Made by a program: the position numbers and the translations under genes. The notes beneath the pieces were generated by a model that made no database searches, was not told the DNA's origin, and was given only the letters and a program-made list of their open reading frames with translations. A DNA stretch of 64,000 nt from an uncultured Candidatus Saccharibacteria bacterium (GTDB lineage: Bacteria > Patescibacteriota > Minisyncoccia > Phycocordibacterales > UBA918): assembly GCA_964399295.1 (NCBI GenBank), contig CAYNQD010000001.1:335672-399671 (forward strand), in the 5' to 3' direction. The stretch's first letter is position 1. The number at the start of each line of letters is the position of its first letter. This document shows positions 7,962 to 62,734 of this stretch, piece by piece.

Positions 7962-9179
7962 ATGGTAGATTTTCTTTTAATTTGGTATGTATACATACCA
8001 ATTGGTATCTTTGTACCACTATTTCTAATGGGGGTACCCATAGCACCGATGCTAAAAAACAAACCCTCCATAGAAGTTAATGGAAGGGTGGAAAAAAGTG
8101 ATTTCGGTTTTTTTACAGAGCTTCCCCCTGGAATCTGTAAAATAAAAGAGCGGGGAGGGGATTTTTTAATTCCACTTATGAATTATACCGGGCATACATA
8201 TGCCGGTATGAAAAGTGGGGCCAAGATCCCCATCCAAGACCCCAAAAGGTATTGGGTGGTCGTAGAGTCAGGAGATGATCCTGACTTTGATCCGCTTAAA
8301 TTTCCAGATCCCAGCAGATGGGATTTTGTTTTTGGCAGTTATAGGTATCCATGGTGGCTTTGGAAGATAATTATCTTCAAGGCCACCAAGCTGATCTTCA
8401 CTGGAATTTGGCCTTTCCAGAAGATCCGAGTAATGCCCATGGAATACTTAAAGGAATTGCCCGGACTGGCAATTTCAGCCACCGGGCAGAAAAAGAAACA
8501 ATACGAAAAGGTCACAAATTTTAGTGACCATTTTCGAATCGCTTCTTTCGATTTTCTGAATCTAATAGAATCAGCGGACACCAGCGATGGTGTCCCCTTG
8601 GAAATGCTGGTAGCATTTACAGGGAGAGTCTTTAACCCGTGGTTGGCCGCCTATAGGGCTGACCGTAGCTGGACGGTCAGGGTGAACAATTTCCTGCCGG
8701 GCGCAGTAAATGATTACACCCGCGGAAAGCCCCTGGATGAAGTCTACACAGGGGAAGACACCGGTGTTACAGAGACAGTAGAATCTCTGGGTAAAAGAAA
8801 CCGTTTTACCCAGGGGGAAGAGCCCATCTTCTGGGAGTTTGGAATAGAAATAATAAGGGCTCTGGTGCCAAACAGGTCGATAATCGACCATGAGGTACAA
8901 AGGAAAGTCAGTGAGAGGGCGGTCGCTTTGGCAGATAAAAGAGCCACTATAATAAGGGCCGAAGGTACTGCCAAGGCTATAGAACTCGAATCTCGGGCTA
9001 TAACAGAGGGCGGAGAGGAAGGCAGGTTAGCTGCCAAATACCGCCGGGATAAGGAGGTAGTAAACAACCTCCCCAACGGAGCCTCTGTCATCGTAACCCT
9101 AGGGGACGGTGAATCATCGACCGATCCCCTTAAAAAAACCAACGACTTGCTAAAAGCGTCGTTGATCAAAAAAGAGTAG
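7962..9179 (+). CDS. membrane-anchored SPFH/band-7 (stomatin/HflKC-like) domain protein
   Basis: N-terminal TM helix. SPFH-like core (SDGVPLEMLVAFTGRV; GIEIIRALVPNRSIIDHEVQRKV) and Ala/Glu-rich coiled-coil tail (IIRAEGTAKAIELESRAITEGGEEGRLAAKY). Start set at the ATG with RBS AAGGAG (residue 27 of the listed ORF, which begins at a TTG). Confidence 0.55.
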   Translation: MVDFLLIWYVYIPIGIFVPLFLMGVPIAPMLKNKPSIEVNGRVEKSDFGFFTELPPGICKIKERGGDFLIPLMNYTGHTYAGMKSGAKIPIQDPKRYWVVVESGDDPDFDPLKFPDPSRWDFVFGSYRYPWWLWKIIIFKATKLIFTGIWPFQKIRVMPMEYLKELPGLAISATGQKKKQYEKVTNFSDHFRIASFDFLNLIESADTSDGVPLEMLVAFTGRVFNPWLAAYRADRSWTVRVNNFLPGAVNDYTRGKPLDEVYTGEDTGVTETVESLGKRNRFTQGEEPIFWEFGIEIIRALVPNRSIIDHEVQRKVSERAVALADKRATIIRAEGTAKAIELESRAITEGGEEGRLAAKYRRDKEVVNNLPNGASVIVTLGDGESSTDPLKKTNDLLKASLIKKE

Positions 9180-9185
9180 TTACAG

Positions 9186-9228
9186 GCTCTCGATATTCTA
9201 TATTTTTGAATATCGAGAGCTTTTTTTA
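9186..9228 (+). terminator. rho-independent terminator for the SPFH-like gene
   Basis: gctctcgatattc-(loop)-gaatatcgagagc followed by tttttttatt. Confidence 0.8.
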
Positions 9229-9257
9229 TTGACTTTTTTAGTTTTTTAATGTATAAT
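9229..9257 (+). promoter_or_regulatory. sigma70-type promoter TTGACT-17nt-TATAAT for the downstream membrane-protein gene
   Basis: Consensus -35 and -10 with 17-nt spacer, directly after the terminator. RBS AAAGGAG precedes the ATG at 9294. Confidence 0.65.
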
Positions 9258-9293
9258 CTAAGAGGAAGTTTTTTAACAAAAAGGAGAAATATT

Positions 9294-10400
9294 ATGGAGC
9301 TGCTCATAACAATATCAACCACGGTAGGCATAATCGTGGTTATAGGAGTATTCTTGGCCATAGCCTACAAAGGCATGGCTCACGGGGGCGTAACTTTCAA
9401 CATAAGGGATCACAAGTGGCTAGCACTTGCACTGGTGATCCCCGTAACCACCTTCTTCCTCTGGAAATGGTGGTCAAAAAAAGAGACCGCCTCCGCAAAA
9501 GAGTCGGCAGGACTGGAGACCGCCATCTCCACCCTCTCCTCGTATACCGAGGACACCACTGGGATAATCACCCTAGTTGTAGTGGTGGCACTGGGGGTGT
9601 GGTTTTTTTCCCTGCTCCTCGTCAAAAAAGACAAGGTGGCAGAAAAAAACACCAACGATTCCCTGACAAGGAACCTGTCTGGGTACATAGTCTTTCTTGG
9701 GATTACCACTCTTGTGGTGATGTACGCCAAAGAACAGTACTGGGACAAGGACGCTATCCCCTTGTCGGGGATGACTCCTTACACAGGGGAGAACACCCCC
9801 CTAGCTTTGTTTATCGGATACACCTCCGCCGTGTTATGGATTGTTTTTATAACAATCGGCGGATGGTTATCCGACAAGGACAAAGACGCGCCCAACCAGA
9901 AATTGGCGGCTCAAGCGAAGAAGTTTGGCAATTTCTTCGGCTGGATCGCCTTCCTTTCCATTATTTTCATAGTAGGTTCATTCCTACTGAAGATAATGGA
10001 AGAGGCTCCTCCTGGGTGGGGCGAATCTGTCTCCAAGCCGGAGAAAGTCAATGTCCGACTTGAAAGAATAGGGCACGGACAGTCGGTTGCCCACGAAGCA
10101 AGCACGTTGACTGTTTTCACAGTCAGCCTGCCGACACCGCACAAGGTGGGCTGGGCATCGGCTGTCTGTGCCGAGATCATCAGCCCCAAGTGGTTGGTGG
10201 ATCAAATTGATGTGATTCAGCATCATTTTGAATTCACCACTCCAGGTGAGCGGGGTTTTGTTCACCAGATGAGACTCACTAAGGAGGTGAGATTTCATCT
10301 AACAGAAAAAGAATTAAGTGCGATAAGAGTGAAATTCCACCTAATCGCAACCCAAGGCTACCCCAAAGATGCGGTATGCCGAAAAACAAAATTCTTTTAA
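9294..10400 (+). CDS. hypothetical polytopic membrane protein (~6 TM) with C-terminal soluble domain
   Basis: 369 aa from the ATG with RBS. Multiple hydrophobic helices then a non-membrane C-terminal ~120 aa. Locally elevated GC. Alternative-frame ORFs here are Arg-rich artefacts. Confidence 0.55.
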   Translation: MELLITISTTVGIIVVIGVFLAIAYKGMAHGGVTFNIRDHKWLALALVIPVTTFFLWKWWSKKETASAKESAGLETAISTLSSYTEDTTGIITLVVVVALGVWFFSLLLVKKDKVAEKNTNDSLTRNLSGYIVFLGITTLVVMYAKEQYWDKDAIPLSGMTPYTGENTPLALFIGYTSAVLWIVFITIGGWLSDKDKDAPNQKLAAQAKKFGNFFGWIAFLSIIFIVGSFLLKIMEEAPPGWGESVSKPEKVNVRLERIGHGQSVAHEASTLTVFTVSLPTPHKVGWASAVCAEIISPKWLVDQIDVIQHHFEFTTPGERGFVHQMRLTKEVRFHLTEKELSAIRVKFHLIATQGYPKDAVCRKTKFF

Positions 10401-10461
10401 GGTTTTCTCCCTTTCTCAAAAGAACATTTGAGAAAACCGCGGGAAAACAAAAAAAGTTCTT

Positions 10462-10515
10462 AAAACCATCAAGACGACAGCTTACCTGTCCTCTCTTGAT
10501 GGTTTTTTATTTTTT
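10462..10515 (+). terminator. rho-independent terminator
   Basis: aaaaccatcaaga...tcttgatggtttt stem followed by ttttttatttttt. Confidence 0.75.
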
Positions 10516-10549
10516 AAGCTTTAAAAAGCTGATACCGTTTCCCCTCTTT

Positions 10550-10885
10550 TTAATTAACCTTAAAAACATCATCGCAACCGGTAGTGCCTGCCGGATCATT
10601 GGCGCAATCCAACTGCTTGCTCATGCCAAAAGTATTGACGGCGATAGAAAGGAGCGCGTAGGCGGAAATCATGACCACCAGGCCAATAATGCCGTAAGTA
10701 ATATGCTTCTTGCCGTCAGCTCTGGCGGTTTCATTGCTACTATTCATCAGGTATTCAGCTAAACCATAAAGAAACACCAACAAAGCCACCCCTGAAAGCA
10801 GAGCAATTGTAGGAAAAAGGATAATTTCGTTTAATTTGGCAACAAAACTAGCAGCTTCAGCGGCAGCTTTTTCTTGTGGTGACAT
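10550..10885 (-). CDS. small 2-TM pilin-like protein (TrbC/VirB2-like T4SS-pilin family, paralog 1)
   Basis: 111 aa. Two hydrophobic helices separated by a charged loop (SSNETARADGKKH). C-terminal Cys pair. Same architecture as the three downstream paralogs. Confidence 0.55.
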   Translation of the reverse strand: MSPQEKAAAEAASFVAKLNEIILFPTIALLSGVALLVFLYGLAEYLMNSSNETARADGKKHITYGIIGLVVMISAYALLSIAVNTFGMSKQLDCANDPAGTTGCDDVFKVN

Positions 10886-10935
10886 ATTCGCTTAGGATTA
10901 TACCACGAACTGAAGCCACATTTCAGGGAAGTAAT

Positions 10936-10978
10936 ACACAACAAAAAAAGACCCCCAGGGGGTCTTTTTTGTTGTGTA
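10936..10978. terminator. bidirectional terminator / near-perfect 20-bp palindrome
   Basis: acacaacaaaaaaagaccccc-a-gggggtcttttttgttgtgt. T/A runs on both sides. Confidence 0.75.
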
Positions 10979-10999
10979 TTTACACATCAATAAAACAGA

Positions 11000-11398
11000 T
11001 TATGGTGTCACCTTAACCACAGGAATCAAAGTATTGATATTCTCATTGGTCGCACCGGTACTTGTTGCCAACAGGTTCACAACTCCCCAGAAAATAAGAA
11101 TCAATACGAATCCTAAAGTAGCGTAAATCATCAGGCTCTTGCCTTTTTCCTTAGACTCGTCATTAGCACCACCCGCAATGAAGTACTGGAACATTCCCCA
11201 GACAAACACCAAGAAACCAATACCAATAATAAATGGAATAAGAACATCATTAGTAAAAGCTAATATATTACTAAGCAAGTCCTGAAAACGACCTCCTCCA
11301 CCACCTGGACTAGCCAACCCTCCCGTTTGAGCCGAAGCTTGAGACATAGGAAGTAAAAAAATCGCTAGTGAGCTTACAAAAAATGTGAAACGTTGCAT
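11000..11398 (-). CDS. pilin-like protein with cleavable signal peptide + 2 TM (TrbC/VirB2-like, paralog 2)
   Basis: 132 aa. Signal peptide ending ...SQASA-Q, Gly-rich linker, then TM-loop(GGANDESKEKGKS)-TM with the WGVV motif shared with paralog 3. Confidence 0.6.
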   Translation of the reverse strand: MQRFTFFVSSLAIFLLPMSQASAQTGGLASPGGGGGRFQDLLSNILAFTNDVLIPFIIGIGFLVFVWGMFQYFIAGGANDESKEKGKSLMIYATLGFVLILIFWGVVNLLATSTGATNENINTLIPVVKVTP

Positions 11399-13991: not shown

Positions 13992-14073
13992 CCCACAACA
14001 AACTCACTGTTTGCTCCGCCCACCACCCCAATATCTACCCTCCGCAAATGGTGTGGTTTGTTGTGGGGCGGGG
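13992..14073. repeat. degenerate copy of an ~82-bp palindromic intergenic repeat (family shared with 62653-62734)
   Basis: cccacaacaaactcactgtttgc ... gtttgttgtggggcgggg. Shares a ~22-nt arm with the perfect copy at 62653. Central loop looks reverse-complemented relative to that copy. Confidence 0.55.
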
Positions 14074-29268: not shown

Positions 29269-29343
29269 GGCCCTATCGTCTAACGGCTAGGACACTTGGT
29301 TCTCATCCAAGAAATCGGAGTTCGATTCTCCGTAGGGTCACCA
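29269..29343 (+). tRNA. tRNA-Glu (CTC), CCA encoded
   Basis: Acceptor GGCCCTA/TAGGGTC (one G-U), anticodon stem-loop CTTGG-TTCTCAT-CCAAG, T-arm CGGAG-TTCGATT-CTCCG, ACCA end. Confidence 0.85.
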
Positions 29344-29519
29344 CGTATAGATAATTTACCATCATTGCAAATTATCACAATAAACCCAAAATCGCCCTTA
29401 TTTTAGGGGCGATTTTGGATTTTTGGAGTGTGAATATAAATTGTCGTAAGTGAGAATGGTGATTGAATCCTGCGGAAATCGAACTGGTTAGAATAAGGTC
29501 AAATATATTTTTTGTTAAA

Positions 29520-29822
29520 TCAAGTATCTAAATGCATTTCATAATCCATTGATTTATGCAACACTCTATAGATTGAAACCCCGTCATCGGTGGGTTTGTA
29601 GTAAATTACATGCGACACCACCTTCCATGCATACAGATTCGAACGGATGTGACTGCAATTTCTACCTTGATTATAGTTATCTGCTAAAAATTGAAAAGCT
29701 GATACTAAGTCATCAATATATTTTTCAGCTCGTTCCAGACCAAAGGTTTCAAAACTATAAATAAAGATATCATTTAAATCTCTGTCGGCAGTCTCGCGGA
29801 CGTGAAATTTTTTATTTACCAT
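29520..29822 (-). CDS. parE: type II toxin-antitoxin system RelE/ParE-family toxin
   Basis: 100 aa. ParE-like pattern (FHVRETADRDLNDIFIYSFETFG...). 11-nt overlap with the upstream antitoxin ORF. Confidence 0.7.
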   Translation of the reverse strand: MVNKKFHVRETADRDLNDIFIYSFETFGLERAEKYIDDLVSAFQFLADNYNQGRNCSHIRSNLYAWKVVSHVIYYKPTDDGVSIYRVLHKSMDYEMHLDT

Positions 29823-30066
29823 TCATTTTTGTCTTAATCTGGGATAAAAATTTCTCTTTAGTCCAGCCGTCAATGGCAGGGCTGTTTTCCGCCTCGTCTA
29901 TCAACTGTCGTAGTTGTTGAAGTTTTGATTTTGCTTCCTGTTCTTGTAGCAGACGCAAACCAGCTCTCACAACTTCACTCTGGTTTTGGTATCGACCAGC
30001 CTCAACTTGACTCTCAATAAAATTACTCAATTCTTCGCTGGGTTGAAAAGTAAGGGTGCGTGACAT
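29812..30066 (-). CDS. parD: type II toxin-antitoxin ParD-family antitoxin (ribbon-helix-helix)
   Basis: MSRTLTFQPSEELSNFIESQVEAGRYQNQSEVVRAGLRLLQE is a classic ParD/CopG RHH N-terminus. Start at residue 21 of the listed ORF, giving 84 aa. Confidence 0.7.
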   Translation of the reverse strand: MSRTLTFQPSEELSNFIESQVEAGRYQNQSEVVRAGLRLLQEQEAKSKLQQLRQLIDEAENSPAIDGWTKEKFLSQIKTKMNGK

Positions 30067-30225
30067 GGTGCTTGTTCCTTTGTAAGACATATTCTTACAA
30101 TTTAGCATAGCTAGTAATCTTGTCAAGAATTAAATGCCTTTTTGTCAGAAGTGCTATCATATAATTCTTGGTCGTGAATTAGCTTAAATAATTTCTCGGT
30201 ATTTTTTCGTGGTTTGGGGTGGGTG

Positions 30226-30257
30226 GTTCGAGATGTGGAGCGGTGTGGGGCACAAAC
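30226..30257 (+). repeat. left copy of ~32-bp imperfect direct repeat flanking the AT-rich fru-like island
   Basis: gttcgagatgtggagcggtgtggggcacaaac versus gttcgagatgtggctcggtatggttcacaaaac at 32510 (27/33 identical, same orientation). Confidence 0.6.
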
Positions 30258-30370
30258 TTGCCACATATGTAATTATTCACACTTGGATGACATCTATATA
30301 TTCAAGCTACGGTTTTTTATTTTAAGATTATTAGATCATTGTATTTTTTATTCTAGACACTCGACTAATA

Positions 30371-31234
30371 TCAAGCTTTTTTTCTGTACAATAAATTGGT
30401 TTTTTGATGTATGGATGCATATGCCATTGCAGTTTTGATAGCATTACTAAAATCAATATCAGTACTTAAACCAACTAAATAACCACCAAGAAATATATCA
30501 CCAGAACCTATTTCACTTTCATTCTTTGCAATATGTTGGTTTGGCAATATAAATTCAGAATATTCTCCGTTTTTATCAACTACTAAAACCTTCTTTGATG
30601 CTTGAGTTATCACAAGACGGCACTTTATATCATTTTGTAAATCTATAAGGTTTTTCTTGGTAATTTTTGTTATAGGTACGTTCAGAATACTAGAAAGCTC
30701 TTTTATATTTATTTTTAAAGTATGTGGCAAAATCTTTTTTAAGGCTTCTACGTTAAAAGTTGTCGTATCCAAAATTTTTTTACACCGAATATCTGAAACT
30801 AATTTTGTGAGTAAACTATAATCTGCATCCCCCTTCAGGAATGGAGTCGACCCAGCTATCACAAGATAATCTTCTTCTCCAATAATTCCTTTAATTTTAT
30901 TGAAAAACTGCTCAATATTAGAGTATGAGGCTACTGATTTACTACGAATATGCGAAACCAACTGAGAATTTTTATAGATAGTAAAGTTTTGACGTATAGA
31001 TCCTTCATGAAAAAAGAACTCATGCTCTTCCCTTGAGACACTTTCAAAAGGTATTTTTCCAGAAAAAACTAACGAACAGAAATTTATATTATTAATAATA
31101 AGAGGCTTAGCCGAATTTATAGCCTTACTTGCTAAAAAATACTCAACTTTTTGTGCAATACAATCTCTACTACCAAACTCGTCAACTTCTATCTTTGTGT
31201 CTATGGCAGGATTTAATGTTATTAAATAAATCAC
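30371..31234 (-). CDS. PfkB-family carbohydrate kinase (1-phosphofructokinase/tagatose-6-phosphate kinase-like)
   Basis: N-terminus MIYLITLNPAIDTKIEVDEF is typical of FruK/LacC. PfkB signature GSGDIFLGGYLVG near the C-terminus. Strongly AT-rich. Confidence 0.7.
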   Translation of the reverse strand: MIYLITLNPAIDTKIEVDEFGSRDCIAQKVEYFLASKAINSAKPLIINNINFCSLVFSGKIPFESVSREEHEFFFHEGSIRQNFTIYKNSQLVSHIRSKSVASYSNIEQFFNKIKGIIGEEDYLVIAGSTPFLKGDADYSLLTKLVSDIRCKKILDTTTFNVEALKKILPHTLKINIKELSSILNVPITKITKKNLIDLQNDIKCRLVITQASKKVLVVDKNGEYSEFILPNQHIAKNESEIGSGDIFLGGYLVGLSTDIDFSNAIKTAMAYASIHQKTNLLYRKKA

Positions 31235-32277
31235 GCTAATATTATATCAGTTTGATGATTATCAAAGTATTTTTGGTAATCTTTAAGTAGCCTGCCACCA
31301 TTAGTTTCAGCTGATATAATCTTTATATTCTCATTAAATTCTGCAAAAATTTGCGATTGTCTTAATCCAAACTTATCTTCAGTGCAGACTATATACTTTG
31401 ACTTGCAATATCTAAGTAATGAGGCTTTCGCACGCTTTTCTCCAGAATCTGCTGTTGTAAACCCAACATTCTTTAAAATTCCATTGGTTCCCACGAAGCC
31501 TATATCCGCGCCGCCTAATGACGGTAAAACTTTGTCAAAATCATGAAAAATATCTTCTTCCACACTTTCGTTGTCGTCCACAATTGCCATTGTGTTAAGC
31601 CTTACTCTGCCACCTATAATAAATAATCTAAACATAGGATCATGATCTTCGAGTCCTAATTCGCTACATGCCGTCACAATTGCATCGGCGACCAAGAAAG
31701 AGCTGGTTACCACAGTAATCTTTCTCAACGAATGGTCTTTAAAGCCTTTTGCGATTAGCTTAGCTATTTCTAGGGTAGTAGTACCAGCATCTAATGCCAC
31801 CACATCACCTGACTTAATAAACGAATAAGCTTTTTCTGCGATCTTTCTTTTTTCGTGCCGTCCTATATTTTTCTTCCACGATATATGTTCCTCATGTATA
31901 AATAAATTATCGTGCTCTCGCACCAATCCTGGAAGCTTATCTTGGACAATTAGTGCAGATAGTGCTTTTTGAAAAGCTTCGAAATCTAGTTCTGTCTCTT
32001 TTCTATCCACTAGTCTTTTATGAAGATCAAATACTGTTATTGGATCGTCTTTTTGATATGGTCTAACTACGTTTAATATTGTTGCTGCTTGTGTTTTTAA
32101 AAGTCTTTCTGTTTCCTCGAGTGCGGTCTCCGGCTCAATTGTATTTTCTTCAATGACAAATGATTTTCTGAGCTTTTGAATAAATTTAAACTTTTTATTT
32201 ATATACAACCCAATCAATGCGCAAACGGCTGTCACTATCGTGGTAATTATTGCTGCCGTAGCTGTATCAATGAACAT
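31231..32277 (-). CDS. DeoR-family-like regulator (sugar-phosphate sensor domain) with N-terminal transmembrane helix
   Basis: DeoR C-terminal effector-domain pattern (SGDVVALDAGTTTLEIAKLIA...ITVVTSSFLVA). N-terminal 25 aa hydrophobic. 4-nt overlap with the kinase gene. Confidence 0.55.
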   Translation of the reverse strand: MFIDTATAAIITTIVTAVCALIGLYINKKFKFIQKLRKSFVIEENTIEPETALEETERLLKTQAATILNVVRPYQKDDPITVFDLHKRLVDRKETELDFEAFQKALSALIVQDKLPGLVREHDNLFIHEEHISWKKNIGRHEKRKIAEKAYSFIKSGDVVALDAGTTTLEIAKLIAKGFKDHSLRKITVVTSSFLVADAIVTACSELGLEDHDPMFRLFIIGGRVRLNTMAIVDDNESVEEDIFHDFDKVLPSLGGADIGFVGTNGILKNVGFTTADSGEKRAKASLLRYCKSKYIVCTEDKFGLRQSQIFAEFNENIKIISAETNGGRLLKDYQKYFDNHQTDIILA

Positions 32278-32509
32278 TTCAGATACCCATAATTTTCTGA
32301 ATATAATTAAGCAAGTATAACCACTGTCAGATATCCCGTGAACAAGAAAGTTAAATCAAATTAAACAATAGTTTTTTTATAAAGAAAATTTGTATAGGAA
32401 ATGTAAATTTGATTAAGCAACTTTCTTATTTGAAGAACTATCTGGCTGTTCCTTACCATGAATCAATTTAAATATCTTCTCAGTCTCCACCCTTGACACG
32501 TTTTTAAAA

Positions 32510-32542
32510 GTTCGAGATGTGGCTCGGTATGGTTCACAAAAC
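32510..32542 (+). repeat. right copy of ~32-bp imperfect direct repeat flanking the AT-rich fru-like island
   Basis: See 30226-30257. Confidence 0.6.
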
Positions 32543-32633
32543 GAGACTTCGTCTCGACACAACGAGCGCGGCGAAGCCGCGCGAGCAGAACAGGCAGGAT
32601 GTAAGATTTTTGAATATAAAAAACCCTCCGCGA

Positions 32634-32672
32634 GCATAAGCTAACGGAGGGCATAAACTTTTTTAGGGATTT
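32634..32672. terminator. bidirectional terminator-like hairpin (ccctccg...cggaggg) with flanking A/T runs
   Basis: 7-bp GC stem with a 14-nt loop. aaaaaa upstream and tttttt downstream. Likely terminates the minus-strand gene 32816-33787. Confidence 0.5.
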
Positions 32673-36779: not shown

Positions 36780-37538
36780 ATGACACACACAAAATACAAC
36801 AACACCAAGTCAATGCTTATCGTTGGCAGTATTGTTACTTTGAGCATGCTTGCTTTTGTTAGTCCAGCATCAGCTGACCGTTCTTCAAGCAAGTCAACCG
36901 GCTCAAACACTAGCAGCGTTACAGTTAGTACTGAAAACAATGCTTTCGTGTTAAATGAGGTTGTAGTAGTGGCCAGCACTGGCAACAACAACATCGACGG
37001 TGGCAACACTGGACGAGCTGGAAATGGTGGTGACGCTAAAGGCAGTCGCGCCAACGCCGGTGACGGTGGTACTTCTGGATCAAGCAGCAATGACGGAGCC
37101 ATTGGTACTGGCGACGCTACAGCGATTGGTACTGTACAGAATGACATCAACAGCAATCGTACAAATGTAACTATTGACTGTGGTTGTGTTAGCAAAAAAG
37201 GCAAGAATGACAAAAATAGCGACAAGCTTGTTGTCTGGACAGGAAACAACGCCGTCCTTGCTAATGGTCTAGCCGTAGCCGCTGAAACTGGAAACAATGA
37301 CATCGACGGCGGAACAACTGGTAAAGCTGGAAATGGTGGTGACGCTACATCTAATGACAACAAGTCAAAGGACAAGCGTGACAACAAGAAGAACAGCACT
37401 ACTGGTGCTGCCAATGCTGGAAATGGTGGTAACACTGGTTCTACAGACAATTACGGGACTATCGTAACTGGTGATTCCCTTTCTGATGGATTGGTAGTAA
37501 ACGTTGTAAACCGCAACGTTACTCGTGTTGCTCGATAA
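36780..37538 (+). CDS. secreted repeat protein (Gly/Asn/Thr-rich, TGNN-IDGG-TG-AGNGGDA repeats)
   Basis: Signal peptide (...SPASA-D). Internal duplications ASTGNNNIDGGNTGRAGNGGDA and AETGNNDIDGGTTGKAGNGGDA. Shares the TGD..NV.N.N motif with the large downstream protein. Confidence 0.6.
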   Translation: MTHTKYNNTKSMLIVGSIVTLSMLAFVSPASADRSSSKSTGSNTSSVTVSTENNAFVLNEVVVVASTGNNNIDGGNTGRAGNGGDAKGSRANAGDGGTSGSSSNDGAIGTGDATAIGTVQNDINSNRTNVTIDCGCVSKKGKNDKNSDKLVVWTGNNAVLANGLAVAAETGNNDIDGGTTGKAGNGGDATSNDNKSKDKRDNKKNSTTGAANAGNGGNTGSTDNYGTIVTGDSLSDGLVVNVVNRNVTRVAR

Positions 37539-38002: not shown

Positions 38003-40835
38003 AAATATCTTTTCTAATTTGTACTCAAGCTTGGTAGGCTTGGTTATTGTCGCGCTATTGGCGCCGGCTGTCTATCCCCTATCTGTCCTAGCCGAAACCA
38101 GCAACGAAGAAACCGTGCTTTCAGCAGAGATTGTCACTGGTGATGCCACAGCCGGCACGACAATAGAAAATGACATAAACACCAACATCATTGATACAAA
38201 AAATGACGGTGAAGAGTTGCCTGATTCCAGCTCTACGCTACCGACACCAGAAACAGCTACCACCACAATCTCGCAAAACCCAGAAAATGACGCTGCTAGC
38301 AGCACGTCAAAATTGCCGATGACCCCCAACGAGACAAATATCACCGCCACCAACACCGCTACCACCACCAACCTAGCCACCAGCACCGCCGAAACCGGAG
38401 GCAATACTACCGAAGCTGGTAATTTCCTAACTGAGACCGGCGACGCTGTTTCTTATATAGACGTGGTCAATGTCGTAAACACCAATATCATAAACTCATC
38501 CGGTCTGATTGATTTTATTCGCGGAGTGCTTGGCTACGATAATTTTGACATGCGTGATACTTTTTACGACATCTTCAAATCTTTCCAAACCGCGCAAAGT
38601 ACAAACTCATGTTTGGAAAATATCTGTGACTACAATTCTTTAATGGTGGATTTAGTCAACAGAGCCAATATTTATAACGATATTTCGGTTATCGCCAACA
38701 CCGGCGACAACTCCAGTTTTGACGGCAGCGGCATTATCAGGACTGGAGATGCCTACGCCAGCGCCAATATTGTCAACCTCGCCAACACCAATATTATTGA
38801 CTCCAACTATCTGCTATTAAACTTCAGCAATTTCTCCGACATGGCCGGCTCTTTGGTTTTGCCAAATAGCGATTTCTTCGCCTCATTATTTGGCCATACT
38901 GGCAACTCAATCGGAAGCGGAAATTTTAATTTTAGTAATAACGCCGCCGTTAGCAATGACATTGAAGTGCTGGCCGATACTGGAAATAACGCCATTGACG
39001 ACGGCAGCGGGACAATCACCACCGGCAATTCATTAGCCACCTCTCATACCGAAAACATTATCAACCAGAATTTTCTTGGCACCGATTCTTTTAGTTTGCT
39101 TATTAGAGTCCATGGTTCTTGGAGCGGAGAAATTTTTGGCTTACCGGAAGGCATGCTGTGGGAAAACACTATGGACGGTGTTAGGTTGTATTACGCTGGG
39201 GACAGTGGCGGCGCCTCAGCTAGCGGCAAGACTATGGCCAATATTGCAAATGACGCTACTATTGCAAATAATGTCCAAGTCTTCGCCCTAACCGGAAACA
39301 ATCAGATTTCGGGCAGTGACGACGCGAGCATAGAGACCGGCACCGCCTACGCCGACAGCACGGTATTAAATATGGCCAACACCAACATCATCGGCAGCAA
39401 CTGGGTCAATCTTATCTTTAATATTTATGGAAATTGGAGCGGCAATATTGCCTTTGGCCAACCCGACTTATGGCTGGGATTGGAAGCCGAGACAAAAGAC
39501 AACCTGCAACCAAACACTGAAGTGACTTATAAATACACCATCTTCAATCGCGGTGACACCACAGCTCGAAACGTGATTTTGGAAAATAAATATCCGGCAA
39601 AATCCATCAATTTTATCAATTCACCTGAAGATAATAGTCAAAGTGACGGACACAGCCTCTGGTCGATTGGAGATATTGGGACAGGAGAAACAAAAGAGCT
39701 TATTGTCAAAACCAAAATCGACGCCACTTTTGGAAAGGATAAGCGTCTGCCTTTGCCAATAACCGCCACCGTATACGGCGATCAGCCCGACGCCAACGAC
39801 GCTGACAACGAAGATTCTTTATTGCTCTACGTCGGCAAAAATCAGAAAACGACCTACACAAACAACAATGAGGAAAATAACAGAAACAACGCTTTCCCAG
39901 CCAAATTTTTCATCGAAAAAAGTGCCGACAAAACCTTTGCTAAGGGCGGCGACACCATAAACTACACCGTCAAACTAACCAGTAAAGGCGGACAGCTTTT
40001 TGACTCAGTTTTGTTTGATGTGTTGGAGGATGAAGAAGGTAATATTTTAAGCGAACAATCCTGGAATCTTGACACCATCGAAAACGGCGAAGATATCACT
40101 ATCTCCTACTCGATTATTCTTCCGGAAAATACCGCAACTGGCATTTATACCAATACCGCGCAACTGTTTGGCAATCACGGCTCCAGACAACCAAAATATA
40201 GAACCGTATACGAAAGTGCAGTCGCCAAACATCAGCTAGCGGTGGGCAATTTGGCAGCCTTCCCCAATTTGAACGCCAATATCTTGAGCTGTAGTCCTTA
40301 CCTAAAAACCTACCTAAAACAAGACAAAGATAATGACTTGAGTGAAGTCGTAAAATTGCAACAATTTCTCTATCATTACGTGACCGACGAAATCGAAATC
40401 AGCGGTGTTTTTGATGACGCTACCAGAATTGCCGTTGCTGAATTTCAACAGCAATACGCGGCGGATATTCTTACCCCTTGGGGAATGACACAAAGCTCCG
40501 GCTATGTGTACTACACAACACAAAAGAAAATAAACGAAATCATGTGCGATCACAAAGTTGAATTTCCATTAACCCCAGACCAAGAAAAAGAAATGGATTA
40601 TTTCAAACAAAATATACACAAAATCAACGTTGACGACATGTTGTTTTCCGGAGACATCAACGCCAACGACTTGGCTGCAGCCGATATTGAGAATGAATCA
40701 GCGACAATTATTGCTGACGATTATATCTCCTCCCCAACAATCAAGCTCTTGAAAGAGGTCTCCAAACCGCACTATAGTCGGTTTGATAATTGGCTTTTGC
40801 TGTTCAAAAATACTCACACTGCCTTTCGCTACTAG
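37980..40835 (+). CDS. large cell-surface repeat protein with C-terminal peptidoglycan-binding-like domain
   Basis: 951 aa. Signal/anchor. Motif TG(D/N)A.A.....N..NTNII recurs at least five times. CARDB/DUF11-like beta region (KYTIFNRGDTTARNVILENKY...TGETKELIVKTKIDA). PG_binding_1-like segment (LQQFLYHYVTD.EISGVFDDATRIAVAEFQQQY). Confidence 0.65.
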   Translation: MKKSMLNKNIFSNLYSSLVGLVIVALLAPAVYPLSVLAETSNEETVLSAEIVTGDATAGTTIENDINTNIIDTKNDGEELPDSSSTLPTPETATTTISQNPENDAASSTSKLPMTPNETNITATNTATTTNLATSTAETGGNTTEAGNFLTETGDAVSYIDVVNVVNTNIINSSGLIDFIRGVLGYDNFDMRDTFYDIFKSFQTAQSTNSCLENICDYNSLMVDLVNRANIYNDISVIANTGDNSSFDGSGIIRTGDAYASANIVNLANTNIIDSNYLLLNFSNFSDMAGSLVLPNSDFFASLFGHTGNSIGSGNFNFSNNAAVSNDIEVLADTGNNAIDDGSGTITTGNSLATSHTENIINQNFLGTDSFSLLIRVHGSWSGEIFGLPEGMLWENTMDGVRLYYAGDSGGASASGKTMANIANDATIANNVQVFALTGNNQISGSDDASIETGTAYADSTVLNMANTNIIGSNWVNLIFNIYGNWSGNIAFGQPDLWLGLEAETKDNLQPNTEVTYKYTIFNRGDTTARNVILENKYPAKSINFINSPEDNSQSDGHSLWSIGDIGTGETKELIVKTKIDATFGKDKRLPLPITATVYGDQPDANDADNEDSLLLYVGKNQKTTYTNNNEENNRNNAFPAKFFIEKSADKTFAKGGDTINYTVKLTSKGGQLFDSVLFDVLEDEEGNILSEQSWNLDTIENGEDITISYSIILPENTATGIYTNTAQLFGNHGSRQPKYRTVYESAVAKHQLAVGNLAAFPNLNANILSCSPYLKTYLKQDKDNDLSEVVKLQQFLYHYVTDEIEISGVFDDATRIAVAEFQQQYAADILTPWGMTQSSGYVYYTTQKKINEIMCDHKVEFPLTPDQEKEMDYFKQNIHKINVDDMLFSGDINANDLAAADIENESATIIADDYISSPTIKLLKEVSKPHYSRFDNWLLLFKNTHTAFRY

Positions 40836-45018: not shown

Positions 45019-45092
45019 ACACCCATTATAACAGACACTGGCTCTAATGACACAATATGGTAAAGTATATCTGCAAAAGAAAAGCAACCACT

Positions 45093-45167
45093 GCCCTCGT
45101 AGCTCAATGGATAGAGCTATTCCGTCCTAAGGAAGAGATGTGGGTTCGATTCCTGCCGAGGGCACCA
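45093..45167 (+). tRNA. tRNA-Arg (CCT), CCA encoded
   Basis: Acceptor GCCCTCG/CGAGGGC (perfect), D-arm GCTCAATGGATAGAGC, anticodon loop GTCCTAA, T-arm GTGGG-TTCGATT-CCTGC, ACCA end. Confidence 0.85.
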
Positions 45168-45189
45168 AAATCTGATAAAGAATTAGGAA

Positions 45190-45212
45190 GAAACTCTGCG
45201 AGTTTCTTTTTT
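45190..45212 (+). terminator. rho-independent terminator after tRNA-Arg
   Basis: gaaactc-tgc-gagtttc followed by tttttt. Confidence 0.75.
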
Positions 45213-45320
45213 CGTTTTAGCTTGATTTTATTTGACATTTGTTGTAATTTGACTTTGGTATTAAGCCCGATTGTCGGGCTTAAATCGTACATTCCCAACC
45301 AAAAAGAAAGGTGGACAGCT

Positions 45321-46025
45321 ATGGAAACAAGTCGTATCATTCTGGCGGCTGATGAGCTGAGTCTCGATCAATGCTTGGAGCTTGCCTCCAAGGTCGGCGA
45401 TCGGGTTCACGCCATAAAGATTCACAACGCGTTCGATCAACAAGGCCCCGGTGTCGTCCAGCGACTTCGGGACGCAGGCGCTCGTCGTGTCTGGGTGGAT
45501 GCGAAACTCCACGATATCCCGAACACTGTCAAGCTCCGTGCGAAGGCAATCGCCGAGTCCGGAGCCGACATCCTCACCGTTCACGCCTCTGGCGAGATCG
45601 AGATGATGATGGCCGCAGTGGAAGCGGGACCGTCGGAGATCTACGCGATCACGGTTCTCACTTCGCTCGGCGAGGAACAGGCGCACCTTCTGCACGGACA
45701 ACCGTCCAAGGCAGGCGCACTCTACCTCGCGCGTCTCGCGAAGCTCGCGGGCGTTCACGGTGTTGTGTGCTCACCCAAGGAGGTCGTGATCCTCGCCAAG
45801 AGGCCCGAACTTCAGGGGCTGAAGTTTATCACACCGGGTGTTCGTTCTTCCGGCAAGGCAACCGACGATCAGAAGAGAGTGGATACTCCGGCGGGCGCGA
45901 TCGCTTCCGGCTCAACTCATCTCGTCGTCGGACGGCAAATCACGCAGGCAACTGATCCGGTGGATGCACTCCGCCAGATCGAGGAGGAGATTTCTCCGAA
46001 CGCTACGAAGGAGGTGAAATCATGA
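45321..46025 (+). CDS. pyrF: orotidine 5'-phosphate decarboxylase
   Basis: OMPDC motifs ILAADELS, DAKLHDIPNT, ILTVHASG, FITPGVR. RBS AAAGGTGG. Roughly 60% GC by eye. Confidence 0.85.
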   Translation: METSRIILAADELSLDQCLELASKVGDRVHAIKIHNAFDQQGPGVVQRLRDAGARRVWVDAKLHDIPNTVKLRAKAIAESGADILTVHASGEIEMMMAAVEAGPSEIYAITVLTSLGEEQAHLLHGQPSKAGALYLARLAKLAGVHGVVCSPKEVVILAKRPELQGLKFITPGVRSSGKATDDQKRVDTPAGAIASGSTHLVVGRQITQATDPVDALRQIEEEISPNATKEVKS

Positions 46026-46651
46026 ACGAGCAAGAAGTCCTGCAGGTTCTCGGCAAAGTTGGAGCAGTCATCGCCGACAGCCACATCGTCTACACGTCTG
46101 GCAAGCACGGCACGGCGTACGTCAACAAGGATGCGGTTTACCCGCACACCGCGAAGACGTCTCGCCTCTGTCGAGCAATCGCCGAGCGGTTCGCGGACGA
46201 CAAGGTGCACGTGGTCATCGCTCCGGCAATCGGCGGCGTGATTCTCTCGCAGTGGACAGCACATCATCTCACGGAGATGAACGGTCACGAGGTGTTCGGG
46301 GTTTACGCCGAGAAGTCCGAAAGCGGAGACGCCTTCGTCATCAAGCGTGGCTACGACAAACTCATCGCTGGCAAGAACGTTCTGGTAGTGGAAGATGTTC
46401 TCACCACCGGCGGCTCCGCCAAGAAAGTGATCGAAGCCACGCGAGCGATTGGCGGCAATGTCATCGGCCTCGGCGTCCTCTGCAATCGTGGAGGAATCAC
46501 GCCGCAAGATGTGGCCGATGTTCCGAAACTCACGGCACTCGTCTCCGTCAAGCTCGACGCACATGACGAGGCAACGTGTCCGCTCTGCGAGCAGAACGTC
46601 CCGATCAACACGGACGTCGGCAAGGGGCGCGAATTCCTCGCGCGAAAGTAA
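46022..46651 (+). CDS. pyrE: orotate phosphoribosyltransferase
   Basis: PRPP-binding motif VLVVEDVLTTGGS. ATGA overlap with pyrF. Same high-GC composition. Confidence 0.8.
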   Translation: MNEQEVLQVLGKVGAVIADSHIVYTSGKHGTAYVNKDAVYPHTAKTSRLCRAIAERFADDKVHVVIAPAIGGVILSQWTAHHLTEMNGHEVFGVYAEKSESGDAFVIKRGYDKLIAGKNVLVVEDVLTTGGSAKKVIEATRAIGGNVIGLGVLCNRGGITPQDVADVPKLTALVSVKLDAHDEATCPLCEQNVPINTDVGKGREFLARK

Positions 46652-56822: not shown

Positions 56823-57250
56823 TTAAAGGGGTGTTTGTAGCATTTAAGCCGAATTCTGTCCAAGTTAACTTGGGGTGATCATATACCTAGGATGATTGTT
56901 GCCAATCACCTCATGCGGCTCTTCCCGCCCCGCTTTCTTACTCTTTTTCTGTTAAGAAAAACTTTTGCTAAAGAGTAAGAAAGCGGGGCGGGACACGGCC
57001 TTGCACACAAGTAAGGATTTTGCCGTTTCAACCGGCATGTTGCCATACCGACTATTCCCAAGGGGAATTCCCTTGCTTTCGCTTAAGACGTCTCTGCTCG
57101 CACCTCTGTATCATTTCTGATACGACGGGCGTTACCCGCTACCTGGCTCTGTATTTCTACAGGTGTGTTCGGACTTTCCTCCCCACTATGTAAATAATGA
57201 GGCGATCACCATGCCTCGTCATTATGTCACATAAAATGTTTTTTGCAAAA
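56823..57250 (-). ncRNA. rnpB: RNase P RNA (bacterial type A-like); ends approximate (+/- 30 nt)
   Basis: Minus-strand P4 5' strand GGAGGAAAGTCCGAAC and P4 3' strand ACAGAATTCGGCTTA with compensatory changes. CR-II-like GGTAACGCC. GTGCAAGGCC element. P3-like hairpin. Long internal hairpin cccgccccgctttcttactc...gagtaagaaagcggggcggg. Confidence 0.75.
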
Positions 57251-62652: not shown

Positions 62653-62734
62653 CCCCACAACAAAAACTCACTGTTTGCGAAGGGCGGGAAATTGGGGCGG
62701 TGAGCGAAGCAAACAGTGAGTTTTTGTTGTGGGG
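62653..62734. repeat. perfect 26-bp inverted repeat with 30-nt loop; intact copy of the palindromic repeat family seen at 13992
   Basis: ccccacaacaaaaactcactgtttgc-gaagggcgggaaattggggcggtgagcgaa-gcaaacagtgagtttttgttgtgggg, in a convergent intergenic region. Confidence 0.75.

Follow-up and report, generated by a model that had tools for sequence, protein, structure and literature searches.

The stretch of DNA analysed here (the window) is 64,000 nucleotides long and comes from an uncultured Candidatus Saccharibacteria bacterium. Homologues of the TsaD protein encoded in it are assigned to Candidatus Kaiserbacteria and Patescibacteria, which indicates an origin from a CPR genome. This report concerns a small AT-rich island within it, between positions 30226 and 32540, which carries two minus-strand genes, one for a kinase of the PfkB family and the other for a protein with a DeoRC domain, and which is bracketed by direct repeats. 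The features that we find at the locus are as follows.

29269 to 29343, plus strand: tRNA-Glu(CUC), part of the native flank beyond the far end of the island, with a terminator hairpin at 29386-29418
29520 to 30126, minus strand: ParD/ParE toxin-antitoxin pair (ParE 29520-29822, ParD 29812-30126)
30123 to 30251, minus strand: second, more diverged remnant of the C-terminal tail of a large serine recombinase (LSR), in the extended downstream repeat; APHRSTSRTTHPKPRKNTEKLFKLIHDQELYDSTSDKKAFNS followed by a stop; tblastn E 1.6e-5
30226 to 30256, minus strand: downstream repeat core, with five mismatches to the upstream core
30371 to 31234, minus strand: PfkB kinase of the 1-phosphofructokinase (1-PFK)/LacC branch, 287 aa, 13 aa shorter than its 300-aa orthologues
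30376 to 30383, minus strand: poly-A run with one extra A relative to loci L083 and L009 (described below)
31231 to 32277, minus strand: gene of the putative sensor-effector, 348 aa, DeoRC; transmembrane (TM) helix at about residues 5-27, degenerate winged helix at about 49-127, DeoR-C domain at about 133-348
32303 to 32342, minus strand: overlapping pair of sigma-70-like promoter matches ahead of the sensor-effector gene, by consensus only
32413 to 32535, minus strand: remnant of an LSR C-terminal tail, in the extended upstream repeat; EPYRATSRTFKNVSRVETEKIFKLIHGKEQPDSSSNKKVA followed by a stop; tblastn E 9e-7
32510 to 32540, minus strand: upstream repeat core, reading TTTGTGAACCATACCGAGCCACATCTCGAAC on the minus strand
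32541 to 32662, no strand: junction region with GC-rich hairpins and the bidirectional terminator (about 32616-32662) of a conserved 323-aa gene

An earlier note on this DNA had described an overlapping minus-strand pair of a PfkB kinase and a DeoR-type gene beside a parDE pair and a tRNA-Glu gene, and our analysis confirms all of these, with an overlap of 4 nt between the two island genes. The low GC content that the note had estimated by eye at about 30% is borne out by calculation, with 32.7% in the island against 42.9% in the window (z = -4.2), which makes the island the lowest 2.25-kb stretch of the 64 kb; the two genes themselves have GC contents of 30.3% and 36.3%. At the other end of the island the junction region contains two hairpins, at 32542-32556 (CGAGAC-TTC-GTCTCG) and at about 32568-32584 (GCGCGGC-GAA-GCCGCGC), which lie between the upstream repeat and the terminator of the 323-aa gene, a gene whose product has a signal-anchor-like N-terminus. 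The first of these hairpins abuts the upstream repeat core and scores as a minus-strand terminator.

The same-orientation repeats reported on both sides of the gene pair are real, and they prove to be longer than reported. Their cores align without gaps at 26 of 31 positions and have a local score of 37, whereas none of 1980 random segment pairs drawn from the window scores above 30; no copies besides these two are found in the 64 kb. The cores are the best-kept parts of two diverged copies of about 125 nt, at 32413-32540 and 30123-30256. Since these copies translate to the C-terminal tail of an LSR, the 31-mers are the cores of two diverged recombinase 3' ends, and the cassette is bounded by two copies of the 3' tail of a recombinase gene. 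The encoded tail reads EPYRATSRTFDVKPSKSSKNLFKLIHDKE... in the recombinase of the metagenomic locus L009, EPYRATSRTFKNVSRVETEKIFKLIHGKEQ... down to the stop in the upstream window copy (32413-32535) and APHRSTSRTTHPKPRKNTEKLFKLIHDQEL... down to the stop in the downstream copy (30123-30251), the two window copies sharing 21 of 40 encoded residues. A tblastn search of the window detects these two tail remnants and no LSR body. Three other origins of the repeats were considered and rejected. A CRISPR-like or dispersed repeat is ruled out by the presence of only two copies in 64 kb and the absence of Rfam hits from the region, a duplicated 3' end of tRNA-Glu by the lack of any resemblance to the tRNA 3' end, and an integron attC cassette by the linked recombinase, which is of the Resolvase/Recombinase serine type, and by the repeats, which are coding tails and not attC hairpins.

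In other elements this cassette, its boundaries unchanged, immediately follows an intact LSR, and further tail-bounded cassettes, such as ParDE, are sometimes arrayed in tandem with it. L009 was reached through a kinase 89% identical to that of the window, and by blastn its positions 8698-11001 align with window positions 32537-30226 at 86.4% identity, exactly from repeat to repeat. On either side of the L009 cassette stands a copy of a 91-nt direct repeat (97% identical), and the first of the two falls within the 3' end of the intact LSR gene. A second and commoner variant of the element is represented by loci L083-L087, the effector of which is 96.6% identical to that of the window, and window positions 32537-30166 align with L083 positions 8742-11106 at 91.3% identity. 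The order in L083 is LSR, core 1, DeoRC-PfkB, core 2, an insertion sequence with ParDE, and core 3. Its three 32-nt cores are identical, each preceding its own version of the tail, and the 28 nt of the window's upstream core from GTGAACC on are identical to this core. An intact LSR thus adjoins the cassette in both L009 and L083. The cassette-adjacent LSRs of L009, L004 and L006 are orthologues (42-45% identical), and L004 and L006 also show duplications of their own tails around the adjacent cassettes. Among the 42 further LSR orthologues with at least 1.5 kb of downstream sequence, six show their own tail again at a distance of 1.3-4.5 kb downstream, and L089, with only 1.3 kb of downstream sequence, can be added to them. 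In related LSRs the duplicated stretch begins about 105-160 nt before the stop codon, and the cargo enclosed by the tail copies includes ParDE, PemK, a KAP NTPase and a UvrD helicase. The ParDE pair of the window is probably a second cargo cassette of the same element type, since in L083 a ParDE pair comes after the cassette, and in L089 a tail-flanked cassette has ParDE as its content.

A wider pattern was noticed alongside these comparisons. In one LSR clade the last 40 or so codons are often recopied 1.1-4.5 kb downstream, with toxin-antitoxin or defence-type cargo in between (L083:7313-15106; L009:7269-11064; L006:13239-14500; and L089, L090, L092, L105, L116, L131 and L134). This arrangement looks like a cassette platform with its attachment site inside the recombinase gene.

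This evidence supports the proposal of attL/attR-type repeats left by a lost element, since homology to the cassettes of other elements stops at the repeats, elsewhere the first repeat falls within the 3' end of an intact LSR, and a recombinase body is missing from the window. Of the relatives available, CP060227.1 is the closest (TsaD 75% identical). The window and this relative are collinear from the 323-aa gene rightwards, with synteny beginning just past the junction region, and at the syntenic place the relative is without the cassette, ParDE and tRNA-Glu. In the search for an empty site the gene pair was accordingly found to be absent from the syntenic region of this relative, but a clean empty site was obtained only in part: synteny with CP060227.1 holds on just one side of the island, which therefore lies at a synteny break. 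The recombinase tails without an LSR body, the position of the cassette beside an LSR elsewhere and its absence from the syntenic place in CP060227.1 together indicate that the island is stranded cargo without a recombinase of its own.

The missing recombinase also bears on another possibility, namely that this genome keeps the cassette as a mere fossil, decaying and without function, irrespective of what the family does in other genomes. Two further observations are consistent with decay, namely the mismatches at 5 of 31 positions of the downstream core, compared with three identical cores in L083, and a frameshift of the kinase gene within the poly-A run. The extra A turns the last 14 kinase residues into a single alanine and a stop, which shortens the protein from 300 to 287 aa, and removal of one A from 30376-30383 restores the 300-aa kinase. 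However, the frameshift costs only the last 13 residues, and the same 287-aa allele occurs in independent Logan assemblies, while the effector reading frame is intact and 96.6% identical to that of the widespread variant P0212. The ratio of nonsynonymous to synonymous substitutions (dN/dS) is 0.06-0.14 for both genes, and 0.06 and 0.13 in the window lineage, values which place both genes under purifying selection. We therefore regard a non-functional fossil as rather unlikely; the window copy may be decaying, yet it was selected until recently.

The first gene of the cassette encodes a TM helix, a degenerate winged helix-turn-helix and a DeoR-C sensor, and it belongs to a family that exchanges N-terminal effector domains. 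In Pfam searches the 348-aa protein matches DeoRC only (PF00455, E 1.3e-22), with the helix-turn-helix (HTH) undetected. Its AlphaFold2 model (pLDDT 81.5) begins with a long hydrophobic helix at the N-terminus, continues with three helices and a β-hairpin over residues 49-127 and ends in a DeoR-C fold, for which Foldseek gives E. coli DeoR (7l6l, E 8e-11) as the best PDB fold, with RpiA, eIF2B and CggR also matched. By hhalign the protein is related to canonical DeoR regulators with a probability of 99.9, and residues 96-127 pair with their recognition helix and wing, although the invariant TxxRRDL motif is lost. An exhaustive HMMER search places the effector family at 113 clusters (E<1e-30), and a census of N-terminal architecture covering 114 members finds TIR domains in 61, a TM helix in about 12, a caspase domain in three, a metallophosphoesterase in two, and PNP and SIR2 domains in one each; HTH_DeoR is found in none of the 114, and one family member has an N-terminal Xre HTH. 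The family occurs in 5 of 185,579 species genomes, across four phyla. Public annotations label its proteins "DeoR family fructose operon repressor", and a comparison with PHROGs gave a generic regulator match only.

The second gene encodes a tightly coupled kinase of a branch whose solved members (FruK, LacC and Pfk-2) act on sugar phosphates. Its profile matches FruK structures and LacC at about E 1e-67, which places it in the FruK/LacC/Pfk-2 (1-PFK) branch. The NxxE and GSGD motifs are kept, and the catalytic motifs are invariant. The description of the kinase as 1-phosphofructokinase-like holds as far as this branch is concerned, but not at the level of the enzyme itself, since it scores 85.7 bits against TIGR03828, the 1-phosphofructokinase equivalog with a cut-off of 292, and 32 bits against NF007068 with a cut-off of 432.

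These results do not agree with the earlier reading of the pair as the FruR/FruK core of a fructose operon. The likeness to such an operon is that one operon encodes both a sensor with the DeoRC fold and a PfkB-type kinase from the FruK/LacC/Pfk-2 branch. The differences are that the cassette has no DeoR HTH and no phosphotransferase system (PTS) gene, that a TM helix or another effector domain occupies the N-terminus instead, that the kinase is replaced by a phosphatase in relatives, and that the distribution of the family is patchy and tracks mobile elements. No linked fruA or fruB gene is found in the two-gene cassette or its flanks (ParDE and the 323-aa protein), the remaining genome not having been searched. 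Four defining features of a FruR/FruK operon thus fail, the kinase reaching 86 bits against the 292-bit FruK cut-off and the supposed regulator lacking a detectable DeoR HTH, and the island is not such an operon. The description of the first protein as a DeoR-type regulator likewise fits poorly, as a TM helix takes the place of a detectable DeoR HTH and the family swaps its N-terminus for TIR, caspase, SIR2, PNP or metallophosphoesterase domains. A broader form of the same idea would make the cassette an accessory sugar-catabolism module, in which a membrane-tethered DeoR-type repressor and a fruR/fruK-like phosphosugar kinase ride a mobile element. A DeoRC domain beside a 1-PFK-branch kinase is indeed a classic pairing, and both the alignment of the middle domain with the DeoR recognition helix and wing and the Xre HTH of one family member would suit a repressor. 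However, the absence of HTH_DeoR from all 114 members, the loss of the TxxRRDL motif and the N-terminal fusions to TIR, caspase, SIR2, PNP and metallophosphoesterase domains, which would be senseless on a repressor, speak against such a module. So do the lack of a transporter or PTS gene in the cassette, the distance of the kinase from the FruK cut-off and the rarity of the family among species genomes, and we consider a catabolic role very improbable.

Wherever the locus could be read beyond the effector gene, a gene for a sugar or sugar-phosphate enzyme lies adjacent to it and usually overlaps it. The partner is a PfkB kinase in the window and in L003-L011, L013, L081 and L083, a Cof-type HAD phosphatase in L012 and L014, and an HAD_2 protein beside the caspase effector of L078, whereas a ROK kinase with a sulfatase-family protein, with or without a fructose-bisphosphate aldolase, accompanies the PNP and metallophosphoesterase effectors. 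The effector most closely related to the PfkB-partnered one of L011, at 56% identity, is that of L012, which has an HAD partner. Neighbouring genes in these loci encode LSRs, ArdC, TraG-like proteins, SMODS, an OLD-type ATPase, NB-ARC proteins and a restriction-modification methylase, a setting that resembles mobile elements or defence regions. Two variations were observed among the TIR-type systems. A second, ribokinase-like PfkB gene directly follows the first kinase in three of them (L003:12441-13322, minus strand; L005:11838-12671, minus strand; L011:5571-6416, plus strand), and such loci may represent a three-gene variant. The system of L005 (9535-11854, on a 1.3-Mb contig) looks pseudogenised, because separate short open reading frames encode its TIR, DeoRC and PfkB parts; NB-ARC and EAD5-trypsin genes lie beside it.

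Interchangeable N-terminal domains on a ligand-binding domain, with a small enzyme encoded alongside and mobile elements as carriers, are the recognised mark of conflict effectors that a ligand switches on. Taking the genes and the repeats together, we consider it reasonably probable that the island is a cargo cassette of an LSR element that encodes a sugar-phosphate-gated membrane effector and a kinase controlling it, and not a fructose operon. The mechanism that we infer as a whole is the following. The DeoR-C domain would bind a phosphorylated sugar, and binding would drive oligomerisation, which in turn would switch on the N-terminal killing module. In relatives this module would be a TIR domain cleaving NAD+; here, clustering of TM helices would damage the membrane, which is the likely target because the N-terminal module is a single TM helix. 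The outcome would be abortive infection or post-segregational killing. In the role that we prefer for it, the enzyme would hold the activating ligand low in an antitoxin- or guard-like manner, and the effector would fire once the enzyme fails or is overwhelmed, as might happen on host shut-off, cassette loss or a phage-driven change in metabolism. Ligand removal is favoured because a 1-PFK-type kinase and an HAD phosphatase share only the consumption of a sugar monophosphate, but we hold this direction of ligand control with less confidence than the overall reading.

The opposite direction would make the enzyme of the same conflict cassette a signal generator, such that upon infection the kinase, or in relatives the phosphatase or the ROK kinase, would produce a phosphosugar second messenger, which is sensed by DeoR-C and activates the TM or TIR module. 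Swappable effectors on a ligand-binding domain beside a small enzyme are the layout of CBASS, Pycsar and Thoeris, and the enzymes retain their catalytic motifs. However, a 1-PFK-type kinase and an HAD phosphatase, which swap beside effectors that are 56% identical, cannot share a product, and the enzymes carry no extra sensor domain. For these reasons we regard signal generation as unlikely.

Several observations weigh against the ligand-gated cassette that we favour and against its preferred enzyme role. The middle domain is still homologous to the DeoR winged helix-turn-helix, so that, judged from its sequence, DNA binding is conceivable. The ROK, sulfatase-family and aldolase partners fit the logic of ligand removal poorly, and they do not discriminate between the possible roles of the enzyme. 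If the window kinase served as an essential antidote, one would expect the frameshift near its end to be lethal, unless the shortening is tolerated. With respect to a role in defence, the closeness of the family to known defence genes is anecdotal and not statistical, neither protein has a model or a match at E<=0.1 in PADLOC-DB v2, and no family members were found in IMG/VR, PLSDB plasmids or a phage collection. As for the element itself, a third repeat after ParE that would close the second cassette was not found in the window.

A few further observations were made elsewhere in the window. At 45057-46651 there are two genes that by eye resemble pyrF (orotidine monophosphate decarboxylase) and pyrE (orotate phosphoribosyltransferase), with a GC content of 53-55% against 43% for the genome, directly after a tRNA-Arg gene (45093-45167). 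They may form a second acquired segment, because the alignment with CP060227.1 stops at 45168. A 36-nt sequence occurs at 14000-14035 and again, inverted and 48 kb away, at 62688-62723 (89% complementary); the latter copy overlaps a perfect 26-nt hairpin (62653-62734), and both may be copies of a small, dispersed hairpin element. At 36930-37450 and 38166-38803, in a region that aligns with the genes for 240-aa, 113-aa and 1027-aa (CLIPPER/PG_binding) proteins of L168, there are repeats of about 300-309 nt, which probably reflect protein domains repeated in tandem. For the bacterial RNase P RNA at 56832-57221 the score is 109 bits, barely above the Rfam threshold of 100.

It is possible, and we propose it tentatively, that effector-winged helix-DeoRC proteins with their sugar-phosphate enzymes form an undescribed immune or addiction class, in which a phosphosugar takes the place of a nucleotide second messenger in gating TIR, TM, caspase, SIR2 or PNP effectors, and whose cassettes are traded through an integron-like platform with its attachment site within the LSR 3' end. 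Our literature searches for DeoRC/TIR/PfkB systems found no description of them. If the proposal is true, DeoR-C would be a new sensor domain and sugar phosphates a new class of ligand for small-molecule-gated immune effectors, and abortive infection or addiction would be tied to the central chemistry of carbohydrates. The cassette would also offer a simple two-gene test system, in which the effector is expected to be toxic alone and the enzyme to modulate it. For annotation the family is a warning, since databases carry these proteins as fructose operon repressors, and the island indicates that toxin-antitoxin and defence-type cargo reaches a Patescibacteria genome.

CD-NTases, Pycsar cyclases and the TIR proteins of Thoeris make second messengers that activate their effectors. 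The cassette resembles CBASS (TIR- and TM-SAVED, STING), Pycsar and the ThsA protein of Thoeris in that a small-molecule sensor is fused to interchangeable TIR, TM, caspase, SIR2 or PNP domains, a small enzyme is encoded alongside, and the system is carried on mobile elements. It differs from them in its sensor, which is DeoR-C (RpiA/eIF2B fold) and not SAVED, STING, CARF, SLOG or a cNMP-binding domain, and in its partner, which is a PfkB, an HAD or a ROK with a sulfatase-family protein (sometimes with an aldolase), and not a CD-NTase, cyclase or TIR synthase. With toxin-antitoxin modules that have enzymatic antitoxins, such as DarTG and the type VII systems, it shares the translational coupling of a potentially lethal effector to an enzyme, and the elements that carry it also have ParDE and PemK cassettes. 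The difference is that the enzyme here would act neither on the toxin nor on the toxin's target, but on a small-molecule ligand.

The recombinase-tail repeats suggest a form of cassette exchange for serine recombinases, with toxin-antitoxin and defence-type cargo, of which a literature search that was not exhaustive found no description. The closest parallels are the cis-mobilizable elements (CIMEs) of streptococcal integrative and conjugative elements, the staphylococcal cassette chromosome (SCC/psiSCC) arrays at the 3' end of rlmH and the Dehalococcoides ssrA islands (PMC3146451). What they have in common with the present case are cassettes devoid of a recombinase, arrayed in tandem next to a serine recombinase, with direct repeats at their ends that duplicate the 3' end of a target gene. 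Unlike CIMEs and psiSCC, however, the duplicated target here is the recombinase gene's own last 40 or so codons, with recombination predicted to take place at the cores, and each cassette therefore carries a replacement LSR tail.

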